In this document: piece after piece, positions 56,131 to 60,887 of the stretch | Position numbering within the stretch: position 1 is the first letter of the stretch | Layout: the number at the start of each line of letters is the position of its first letter | Source: an uncultured Rhodospirillales bacterium | GTDB lineage: Bacteria; Pseudomonadota; Alphaproteobacteria; CAAGCB01; CAG-977 | Direction: 5' to 3' | Length of the DNA stretch: 64,000 bases | NCBI GenBank assembly: GCA_902777205.1 | Contig: CACYSU010000011.1 | Location: forward strand, 6,910 to 70,909 | Program-made: the position numbers and the translations under genes | Notes under the pieces: generated by a model | What the model was told of the DNA's origin: nothing | Databases searched by the model: none | Seen by the model: the letters and a program-made list of their open reading frames with translations, nothing else

Positions 56131-58581
56131 ATGGAATTCGATTGGAGTCGCATCACCAAACCCGTATTGGAAAACAAAGATGGCCTGTTGGCGGAAAACG
56201 CTGATGCTATTACCAAACTATGCAAGAGCGACGACGCTTCGGAAACGGAAAAAAACAAAGTCATCTGTATCATCGGCGATCGCGGATGCGGTAAAACGTC
56301 CCTGCTGCGTTCCGTTATGAAAGAGCTGAAGAACCAAAAAACAAACGGCAAGGATGCCGATTTTTATGTCACCAACCTGATCGACCCCAGCATTTTCGAC
56401 GATTCCCTGTCCATCAACGAATTTTTCATCAGTGTACTTGCCGATGAAATCAAAAACACTCCTGTGGACGACTGCCGTTCCGGTTGGAACAGCGAACGCA
56501 ATAACAATCGCCTTAATTTTAACAACAAGTTGGATGAAATCATGAATGTCATTGCGGACATCAAATCCAACAAAGAACGTTTCTACGAGGAACGCCACGC
56601 CGCCGACATTGTTTCCAGCATTCAAAACCGGTCGAAATTCAAACATCGGCTGCATGAATTCATTGAAGCCTTTTACGCGGTCAAAGGATATTCCCAAAAA
56701 CCTAAAATGGTCGTTTGCATTGACGATCTGGATCTGGTCGAAAACAAACATATTTACCAAATGATCGAGGATATTCAAAAATGTCTGAACGGGAATTGCA
56801 TCGTTTTGCTGGCGTTCCGTGAAATTCAGCTGTTGAACGCCATTCAAGACCACCTGATCGCGCAAAACACACGGCTTTTAGAAAAAAACATCCTTTCAAT
56901 GGCGGAAATCAAAGACCAATCATTGCAGTTTTATGAAAAACAATTCCCCGTTTCCCGCCGTTTTTACCTGCGCGGACAAAAGGAATTTTTCAGCGAATCC
57001 CCCGCGACAGTTTTGCATCCTTTCTTCAAAGACACAGCTTCCGAAACCGAATTTTCAGAAACGTTGAAAAAGGATTCTCCCGATATGGATCTGCACGGTT
57101 TTATGTCAAAGCTGGTGCGCGACAAACTGGCCCTGCCGTTGGATCCGATTGATGAAAAGGAAAAAGTTCACCTGATCTATCCGAACGGATTGCGCGAAAT
57201 TCTGGCGTTCATCCGTATGATGATGGAAATGAAAGACATCCGCAACAATGATGAATTGTTAAGGGACAATTTGAAAGAAAACCTGAAAATATACCAGAAC
57301 TATGTCCTTTATCGGGCGAAAGTGAATCTGAACACAAAATATTTTCCTATTTTAGATGAATGGCTGAAAACGAGCGTAAAAAATAAAAACTATTATATTT
57401 GTTCAAAAATAGACGGTTTTTTAAAAAACGCACCAAAAGGACAAGACGAACCGATGAAAGGGAATGAATTTTTAGCCATTGAATCCGTCCAATCCTACAA
57501 CGTCACAATCGGCGACGTGATACGTTTTTTAAACGAATTGAAAAGCCGCTGTGCTTTTGACGAAGACATCATGTATTTTTGCTATCTTGTCAAGATCTTG
57601 TATTCCATTGAATTGCTGACCGCATTTCTTAATCTGAAAAATGAAGACTTGAACAAAAACGTCAACGCTCCCACCGACGATGAAGATAATGAGAACGATA
57701 ATGATCCCAATGCCACTCGTGAAAGCGATGAATTTTGTTTTCCAAACACACCATACAGTGAACTGATCAACTGCACTTTCATGCCGGATAATTTTCTATA
57801 CGCCCCCGCCTATTCAAATGCGATTGATTACATTTTCATTGCCCAAAATATGGAAGAAAAAGATTTGCGGAAACTGGCCGGCCAAATTGCCTATTCCCGA
57901 ATTATGGGAAAAAGCAAAATTTGGAATGAAGCGCGTCCTAAGACGTCCACCGGCAGCGGTTTTTACAGATTCAGGCCGCTGTATCACGACCAGATTTTTC
58001 TGCCATCCGAAATGGAAAAGAAAAACAAAATTAATTACCGTGCGGATCCCTTTTCAGCCGTTTTGAAAAAATCCTATCTGCAAACGGCGGAACAGGAAAA
58101 ATCATACGTATTCTATTCGCTGTTTGATGTGGATGCGCTTATGCGGATAACTTTTTATAATAAAGAAGAAGCTTACAGACCCTACATCTACAAAAAGATC
58201 AATCGTCTTCTCTGTAATAAAGCGGATGGAAAAATGCATTCCCCTTATGAAGAGGGTTTAAGACTGTCCATTTCGCATCTGTATCCTGTTAACACCCCCG
58301 TTAAAGATGTTTTTGATGACGATGTTATCCAAGCGGTTTGTTCTTTAAAACCTGAACCTCTTGAAAATTTTTTCAAGCAAGGAATTGATGAATGGCGTAA
58401 GTTTGCCGCAAAAATAGCTGAATTTTCAGAATTAGCCAGCGACGACAAAGTACGCGCGAATAATTTAATTGAAAGTTTAAAAAACAAAAAGCGGCGGACG
58501 AATGAAGAAATAGAAAATCAAAAAAATGATTTCACCCAATTCCTTGAAAAATATCCGAAATTGGCGGATATGTTGCGATGA
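56131..58581 (+). CDS. KAP-family P-loop NTPase (816 aa); candidate RADAR RdrA-like ATPase.
   Basis: Strong RBS AGGAGGAGG. Walker A IIGDRGCGKTSLL. Walker B MVVCIDDLDLVEN, the KAP-type DDLD. GC content is markedly lower than the flanks. Confidence 0.7.
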   Translation: MEFDWSRITKPVLENKDGLLAENADAITKLCKSDDASETEKNKVICIIGDRGCGKTSLLRSVMKELKNQKTNGKDADFYVTNLIDPSIFDDSLSINEFFISVLADEIKNTPVDDCRSGWNSERNNNRLNFNNKLDEIMNVIADIKSNKERFYEERHAADIVSSIQNRSKFKHRLHEFIEAFYAVKGYSQKPKMVVCIDDLDLVENKHIYQMIEDIQKCLNGNCIVLLAFREIQLLNAIQDHLIAQNTRLLEKNILSMAEIKDQSLQFYEKQFPVSRRFYLRGQKEFFSESPATVLHPFFKDTASETEFSETLKKDSPDMDLHGFMSKLVRDKLALPLDPIDEKEKVHLIYPNGLREILAFIRMMMEMKDIRNNDELLRDNLKENLKIYQNYVLYRAKVNLNTKYFPILDEWLKTSVKNKNYYICSKIDGFLKNAPKGQDEPMKGNEFLAIESVQSYNVTIGDVIRFLNELKSRCAFDEDIMYFCYLVKILYSIELLTAFLNLKNEDLNKNVNAPTDDEDNENDNDPNATRESDEFCFPNTPYSELINCTFMPDNFLYAPAYSNAIDYIFIAQNMEEKDLRKLAGQIAYSRIMGKSKIWNEARPKTSTGSGFYRFRPLYHDQIFLPSEMEKKNKINYRADPFSAVLKKSYLQTAEQEKSYVFYSLFDVDALMRITFYNKEEAYRPYIYKKINRLLCNKADGKMHSPYEEGLRLSISHLYPVNTPVKDVFDDDVIQAVCSLKPEPLENFFKQGIDEWRKFAAKIAEFSELASDDKVRANNLIESLKNKKRRTNEEIENQKNDFTQFLEKYPKLADMLR

Positions 58582-60887: not shown

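Follow-up and report, generated by a model that had tools for sequence, protein, structure and literature searches.

A probable Streptococcus suis-type RADAR gene pair at a fixed chromosomal site of an uncultured gut or rumen alphaproteobacterium

The window analysed here is a stretch of 64,000 nucleotides from contig CACYSU010000011.1 (assembly GCA_902777205.1) of an uncultured Rhodospirillales bacterium, and on its forward strand, to which all feature coordinates below refer, it encodes two large proteins in tandem. The first open reading frame (ORF; 56131..58581, 816 aa) specifies a KAP-type/AAA+ ATPase of the Streptococcus suis RdrA type, and the second (58578..60887, 769 aa) specifies a RADAR adenosine deaminase with three insertions; the genes are called rdrA and rdrB throughout. 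An ATGA stop/start overlap (58578..58581), read directly in the sequence, translationally couples them. Both ORFs and their junction agree exactly with an initial annotation, made from the sequence of the window, which had proposed a RADAR-like module of an ATPase and a deaminase. That proposal held, as both proteins proved to be homologous to RADAR components of solved structure. We consider it highly probable that the pair constitutes rdrA and rdrB of an S. suis-type RADAR system, residing at a fixed chromosomal site of an uncultured gut or rumen alphaproteobacterium and acting through the mechanism expected from homology. RADAR is a two-protein system whose genes lie in tandem in all known cases (PMC9994260), and since it is described as such, the missing third accessory gene to which the initial annotation had drawn attention is no anomaly.

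The initial annotation had suggested profile searches with both proteins and a structural comparison of the second with RdrB. The searches with RdrB were positive, those with the PADLOC RdrA models were not (see below). Pfam recognised A_deaminase in RdrB (E=1.4e-15), the stretches homologous to adenosine deaminase (ADA) being limited to residues ~420-520 and ~659-740, and the PADLOC RdrB model matched the protein at E=1.7e-30. A weaker PADLOC match to CARF_ADA (E=2e-19) covers the deaminase part of RdrB only, and Pfam gave no match to a CARF domain in the protein. Using phmmer, residues 380-731 were aligned with E. coli RdrB (8fnw/8fnv) at E=6e-26. The active site of E. coli RdrB consists of H152, H154, H498 and H530 together with E501 (PMC9994260), and each of these residues has a counterpart in the window protein. 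The HxH motif (H155 and H157; 59040..59048) provides metal ligands equivalent to E. coli H152/H154. The HAGE motif (H465...E468; 59970..59981), comprising a metal ligand and the catalytic glutamate, aligns to HVGE of 8fnw and thereby to E. coli H498/E501, while the GHA motif (H497; 60063..60071), which carries the fourth histidine of the tetrad, aligns to GHC of 8fnw and thereby to H530. These three motifs are invariant in 61 homologues, and NTDD (residues 715-718; 60720..60731), which falls within the Pfam A_deaminase match at 659-738, is at least 90% conserved in the same set. Thus, all four motifs on which the deaminase had been recognised are present and conserved.

RdrB proteins are characterised by three insertions into the ADA fold (PMC9994260). 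An AlphaFold model of the window RdrB (mean predicted local distance difference test score (pLDDT) 89.3, predicted template modelling score 0.92) contains an N-terminal extension, an insert between HxH and the remaining barrel, and an insert after H497. When this model was searched with Foldseek, E. coli RdrB (8fnv/8fnw/8hr7) aligned over the full length with template modelling (TM) scores of 0.70-0.74 normalised either way, so the suggested structural comparison favoured RdrB. Ordinary adenosine deaminases, in contrast, aligned with the core only, covering ~30% of the model (TM normalised to the query ~0.3) where RdrB covers all of it, showing that the large insertions noted in the deaminase are real.

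For RdrA, Pfam reported a KAP_NTPase domain (E=5e-8). The Walker A motif GDRGCGKTS (residues 49-57; 56275..56301) aligns to GDRGTGKTS, and the Walker B motif CIDDLDL (residues 196-202; 56716..56736) to IIDDLDL, of RdrA from the validated S. suis RADAR system, whose structure is PDB 8fnu (Duncan-Lowey et al. 2023, PMC9994260). Both motifs are as first read and show little or no variation in an alignment of 35 RdrA homologues; within them, G49, R51, G52, G54, K55 and S57 of Walker A and C196, I197, D198, D199 and D201 of Walker B never vary. R355 in the sequence GLRE (57193..57195), also invariant in the 35 homologues and aligned to LRE of 8fnu, is a candidate sensor-2 arginine and would be the counterpart of E. 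coli R377. The rest of the protein (residues ~376-816; 57256..58578) forms a C-terminal lobe that is alpha-helical in the predicted structure and corresponds to the proposed phage sensor.

Comparison of whole proteins places RdrA with that of S. suis. A phmmer search aligned residues 17-690 with 8fnu_A at E=1.9e-38, and Foldseek superposed the predicted structure on the same chain at E=1.5e-25 with full-length TM scores of 0.63/0.64, the remaining RdrA entries ranking next. The E. coli and C. rodentium RdrA structures were matched over the ATPase part only (TM 0.31-0.37). The next structural matches outside RADAR were BrxC and ORC/Cdc6, which agree with the published description of RdrA as Cdc6-like (PMC9994260). 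The initial annotation had also allowed for a KAP-type ATPase that was not RdrA, in which case the pair would have been a distinct variant. That worry was settled because RdrA is itself a KAP-type ATPase: the depositors of 8fnu entered it as a "KAP NTPase domain-containing protein", and Pfam KAP_NTPase also matches S. suis RdrA.

The pair is co-conserved elsewhere, a point that the initial annotation had included in its refuting conditions. The species-representative genomes scanned contained at least 478 RdrB-like loci, and in 68 of the best 80 of these the gene is immediately preceded by a same-strand ORF matching the RdrA profile (68 of the 75 informative loci). The remaining loci of this set include five contig ends and three with an unmatched upstream ORF of 847-930 aa, two of which contain a Walker A motif. 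In metagenomes, a search of 1.84 billion representatives with the RdrA profile yielded 922 clusters, formed at 50% identity, with E<=1e-30. The relatives are mostly from Bacillota and are distributed patchily across phyla; the closest ones (87%, then 49-51% RdrB identity) come from metagenome-assembled genomes (MAGs) of uncultured Alphaproteobacteria of gut or rumen. One of the latter, contig L005 from another gut alphaproteobacterium, carries a 49%-identical pair next to integrase, Fic/Bro-N, relaxase and HTH_17 genes (L005:1-5063). This arrangement looks like an integrative mobilisable element with RADAR as cargo, and the proximity of the pair to integrase and relaxase therefore indicates one route by which RADAR is mobilised. 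A search of phage records returned no relative of RdrB, and plasmids yielded just eight distant RdrB matches (<30% identity), one of them annotated rdrB. Most database relatives carry the name 'hypothetical protein'. An origin in Neisseriaceae, suggested by GC content and hairpins, was considered and rejected: two patterns of the DNA uptake sequence had no match, and Alphaproteobacteria MAGs proved to be the nearest genomes.

In characterised RADAR, an RdrA heptamer (or 14-mer) is docked on an RdrB dodecamer, and the systems of E. coli, C. rodentium and S. suis are known to deaminate ATP/dATP and to give a phage defence for which both active sites are required (PMC9994260). According to this model, the window RdrA, a KAP-type AAA+ ATPase, would assemble into rings, and the three insertions of RdrB would build a large shell onto which the RdrA rings would dock via their crown. 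Phage infection would probably be sensed through the C-terminal helical lobe of RdrA, following which the RdrA-RdrB complex would deaminate ATP and dATP to inosine triphosphate (ITP) and its deoxy form (dITP). Accumulation of ITP/dITP would poison the nucleotide pool, thereby halting phage replication in the manner of abortive infection. For the window system, we infer from its relatives how it assembles, that it turns ATP into ITP, that it confers defence and what triggers it, and phage-triggered deamination of ATP/dATP to ITP/dITP is the most likely mechanism.

Several points weigh against this assignment, or against the mechanism attached to it. The NCBIfam RdrB model (NF041744) matched at E=9e-44 with 150.1 bits, short of its 800-bit equivalog cut-off, and the NCBIfam RdrA model (NF041743) matched at E=2.3e-12 with 46.2 bits against a cut-off of 600, this match being confined to the P-loop region. 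The PADLOC v2.0.0 RdrA models gave no match to the window RdrA, the best match being PifA (E=3.5e-6). The predicted structure of RdrA has a pLDDT of 75.7, indicating moderate confidence only, and the nearest validated RdrA, that of S. suis, is just 25% identical, with the last ~125 residues unaligned by sequence. In the vicinity of the pair there are neither mobility genes nor further defence genes, so that its setting is one of housekeeping genes rather than a defence island. At the level of function, what is said of the clade in the window is drawn from homology, the trigger is a hypothesis for RADAR in general, and the mechanism of RADAR is debated between RNA editing and nucleotide deamination (PMC9994260).

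In the RNA-editing model, RdrA would load RNA into RdrB and the mononucleotide pool would not be poisoned. In its favour, PDB entries 8hra and 8hrb, which are among the structural matches of the window RdrA, bear the title 'RdrA ring in RNA-loading state', and weak A-to-G signatures (~4% in ssrA) have been observed with C. rodentium RADAR (PMC9994260). However, more than 99% of adenosines remain unedited while defence is effective, E. coli RADAR is protective without an A-to-G signature, and RdrB has an active site resembling those of ADA/AMP deaminases rather than that of ADAR (PMC9994260); the active site of the window RdrB is likewise of the former, mononucleotide type. We consider RNA editing an unlikely account of how the window pair would act.

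The failure of the RdrA models raises a different alternative, namely that a KAP NTPase unrelated to RdrA was recruited beside an RdrB-like deaminase, forming a distinct ATPase and deaminase system. The absence of a PADLOC RdrA match and the restriction of the NCBIfam match to the P-loop, far under its cut-off, would suit such an origin. Against it, the alignment with S. suis RdrA extends well beyond the P-loop (residues 17-690), the whole two-lobe fold is shared with a RdrA whose system has been validated, and the PADLOC RdrA models behave in the same way towards other members of the branch. They give no match to RdrA of Streptococcus sanguinis or of the 49%-identical alphaproteobacterial pair either, although both partner RdrBs are matched, and none of the S. 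suis-type RdrAs tested (window, L014:5324-7987, L005:5411-8011) was recognised. Because the S. sanguinis protein is missed too, the PADLOC result probably reflects a gap in model coverage and is no evidence of unrelatedness. The NCBIfam cut-offs serve annotation and are not a biological criterion. The three validated RADAR systems share just 22-28% identity with one another (PMC9994260), so that models of this kind are unable to span the validated family and the divergence of the window pair is normal; the NCBIfam and PADLOC RdrA models may derive largely from the E. coli/C. rodentium clade. The pair has every architectural feature of RADAR (tandem genes, the RdrA domains, and the RdrB fold with its insertions and active site). 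In terms of annotation, it falls short of the NCBIfam equivalog cut-offs, and the PADLOC models match its RdrB and not its RdrA. We judge a distinct system to be very unlikely.

It is also conceivable that the deaminase produces a base-modified nucleotide such as dITP which, as second messenger, activates an effector encoded at another locus. A preprint (bioRxiv 10.1101/2024.12.20.629578) outlines a system of this kind, in which modified nucleobases serve as signals in anti-phage immunity. At odds with this, no linked effector gene was found in the window or at related loci, where the neighbours are lipoprotein genes, EamA, and tyrS or mnmA, and the second protein has the insertions and fold specific to RdrB and is partnered with RdrA. 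We give the second-messenger scheme a very slight chance, and the preferred assignment remains a RADAR pair that would deaminate the nucleotide pool directly.

The base composition of the pair is uneven. rdrA has a GC content of 0.41 and a GC content at third codon positions (GC3) of 0.48, falling to 0.38/0.41 in the C-terminal half, while rdrB has 0.52 and 0.66 and becomes host-like in its 3' part (0.55/0.68); host genes have a GC content of 0.53-0.60 and GC3 of 0.70-0.80. The AT-rich segment that had been ascribed to the whole pair therefore applies to rdrA and for the most part not to rdrB, and low GC is mostly a trait of rdrA. Although the occurrence of the pair at one chromosomal site between housekeeping genes, in all of the conspecific contigs examined, would suit a housekeeping purine-salvage adenosine deaminase standing beside an unrelated NTPase with no role in defence, this explanation is scarcely credible given the foreign GC3 of rdrA, the extreme divergence of its alleles within the species (below), the patchy distribution across phyla, the 49%-identical pair on the integrase/relaxase/Fic element, and a 769-aa RdrB architecture quite different from metabolic adenosine deaminases of ~330 aa.

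The conspecific contigs reveal an unusual pattern of variation within rdrA. The window was compared with contigs L088-L095, L001 and L008, one of which (L089) is 100% identical to it. Flank identity among the conspecific contigs is 98-100%, whereas within rdrA identity falls to 83-92% at the 5' end and, over the 3' half, to 52-86%, with most of the divergence in 57340-58590. The length of RdrA varies from 816 to 862 aa, whereas that of RdrB is constant at 769 aa. Mean synonymous divergence (dS) is 0.27 for rdrA and 0.10 for rdrB, compared with 0.017-0.047 for yidC, EamA and one lipoprotein gene, so that synonymous divergence of rdrA is ~10 times that of the flanks. The ratio of nonsynonymous to synonymous divergence (dN/dS) is about 0.25 for both genes (~0.26 for rdrA), from which it follows that both are under purifying selection.

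Within RdrA, residues 541-816 have an amino acid identity of 0.75-0.77 and a dS of 0.38-0.57, compared with an identity of 0.94 in the ATPase core. Variation is concentrated at residues 1-20, 241-320, 501-520 (an acidic linker), 561-580 and 741-800, with insertion/deletion patches at ~505-520, 561-580 and 741-800, and the most variable part of rdrA is also its most AT-rich part. rdrB contains a single variable patch, codons ~171-255 (window 59090-59340), located inside insertion 2; here amino acid identity is 0.87, compared with 0.98 in the catalytic core, and dN/dS reaches its local maximum of 0.47. A matching variation of the RdrA crown and this RdrB patch was considered and rejected, since in the more distant lineage L001 the crown is 0.98 identical and the patch 0.76, in a comparison of few strains.

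Lineage L001, whose flanks are ~95% identical to those of the window, carries the 3' half of the window's rdrA at 96-100% identity, and rdrA alleles have therefore been exchanged between lineages by recombination. Positive selection on rdrA was rejected as the cause of the divergence, because dN/dS lies at 0.15-0.5 throughout and dS itself is ~10 times that of the flanks. The pattern fits better with old alleles that have been maintained or repeatedly imported than with a recent adaptive sweep or burst. The C-terminal domain of RdrA as phage sensor is an unproven hypothesis (PMC9994260), to which the hypervariability of the C-terminal lobe lends indirect support. It is possible, though we hold it only tentatively, that these old, recombining alleles at a fixed site are balanced by differing phage triggers and so constitute a natural specificity panel. 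If so, the panel of rdrA alleles could be used to map the trigger of RADAR and to test the C-terminal domain of RdrA as its sensor.

Upstream of the pair lie rnpA-yidD-yidC-engB, three unannotated lipoprotein genes and an LpoB-like gene, and downstream EamA followed by tyrS (tyrS-anmK), confirming the lipoprotein operon and the EamA and tyrS genes named as flanks by the initial annotation. The products of the three genes in a row ahead of the LpoB-like gene (52287-55321; 478, 200 and 312 aa), predicted to be lipoproteins or secreted, have no Pfam match, yet are conserved in related MAG contigs. The pair occupies the same site in every listed contig that encodes an identical LpoB-like protein. 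An empty site was sought among these contigs and none was seen, and for this reason the borders of an insertion, or repeats at them, cannot be defined. Beyond EamA two arrangements were found: tyrS-anmK follows in the window, L088, L089, L092 and L094, and mnmA-dnaJ-DUF2889 in L090, L091 and L093 as well as in L001-L004 of the more distant lineage. In L095 the divergence after EamA begins at this point too, and the contig ends short of the downstream genes. Homology stops at ~61896-61935, directly after the EamA terminator, and a rearrangement breakpoint therefore adjoins the RADAR locus.

The 5' edge of the RADAR unit is set by an intrinsic terminator of the upstream LpoB-like lipoprotein operon (55971..56010), identified by direct folding as a 14+2 bp hairpin of -21.8 kcal/mol (z -4.25; none of 200 shuffled sequences folded equally well) followed by a U-run. 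A consensus terminator scan gave no match at either border of rdrA-rdrB; it probably missed the upstream hairpin because an A/U extension of the stem consumes the T-tail. On the other side, the hairpin 3' of rdrB is not above shuffled sequences on direct folding (z -1.19) and has no T-run. Hairpin terminators had been placed at both ends of the segment, and only the upstream one stood. The first strong terminator downstream of rdrB is that 3' of EamA (~61868-61895), which is bidirectional between EamA and tyrS. Inside the 70-nt gap between rdrB and EamA there is a promoter-like sequence, TTGACA-17-TATCTT.

The rdrA leader (56011..56130) was read directly and is a putative promoter region, in which a consensus scan called no sigma-70 promoter. 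It contains a ribosome-binding site, AGGAGGAGGG, at 56115-56124 ahead of the rdrA ATG and, ~30 nt upstream of this site, the palindrome CGGATA-N14-TATCCG (56074-56099), which may function as an operator or fold into an RNA hairpin. The leader, including both palindrome arms, is largely conserved across the conspecific contigs. A search of the whole window with Rfam found one tRNA and nothing else. In two large adjacent ORFs on the reverse strand (8599-12423 and 12564-14690; 1273 and 707 aa), the sole recognisable domain is in each case a putative metallopeptidase domain, DUF6782.

RADAR was already known as a family with a wide distribution across phyla, to which these results add an intact system from uncultured Alphaproteobacteria of gut or rumen. 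Judging from the 922 RdrA clusters and the RdrB-like loci counted above, metagenomes hold a large S. suis-type branch, and because the PADLOC RdrA models and the NCBIfam cut-offs do not recognise this branch, model-based surveys probably undercount RADAR. Knowledge of how RADAR works is unchanged by the locus in the window, of which the allelic series of rdrA is the sole feature that may help with the question of what RADAR senses.

Among known systems, the comparison can be extended to Cad1, a CARF-fused deaminase of type III CRISPR systems which has an ADA fold and, as outlined in PMC11645235, converts ATP to ITP in antiviral immunity. Cad1 is activated by cyclic oligoadenylates via its fused CARF domain, whereas the window deaminase lacks both a CARF domain and a CRISPR context and is instead paired with a separate ATPase, RdrA. 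Closer to the window pair are the E. coli and C. rodentium RADAR systems (8fnt, 8fnv, 8fnw, 8hr7-8hrc), whose RdrB shares with it the full-length fold, including the three insertions, and the catalytic residues, although sequence similarity to E. coli RdrB is limited to residues ~380-731. Their RdrA has the ATPase domain in common with that of the window, but the C-terminal lobe is not recognisably similar.

The S. suis system shows the same gene order, with rdrA followed by an overlapping rdrB (locus L096), and its Walker motifs and deaminase histidine tetrad with the glutamate are common to the window pair. About 1.4 kb downstream of S. suis rdrB, after a glutamate racemase gene, lies a Ham1-like gene of the ITP/dITP pyrophosphatase family (L096:8963-9973). 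Such a gene is notable beside a system that makes ITP, and the window pair has no adjacent equivalent; the Ham1-like and glutamate racemase genes may be an ordinary housekeeping pair. The hosts differ, S. suis being a member of the Bacillota and the window host an alphaproteobacterium in which the system is known from sequence, and the window proteins are shorter, with RdrA of 816 aa compared with 873 aa and RdrB of 769 aa compared with 864 aa (S. suis lengths from Table S1 of PMC9994260). Pairwise, the RdrA proteins are 25% identical over 648 aa (E=1e-41) and the RdrB proteins 30% identical over 99% of their length (E=3e-95). Given the 22-28% identity among validated RADARs, the window pair stands no further from a validated system than these stand from one another, and the locus is an additional RADAR of the known two-protein kind, not a new system.

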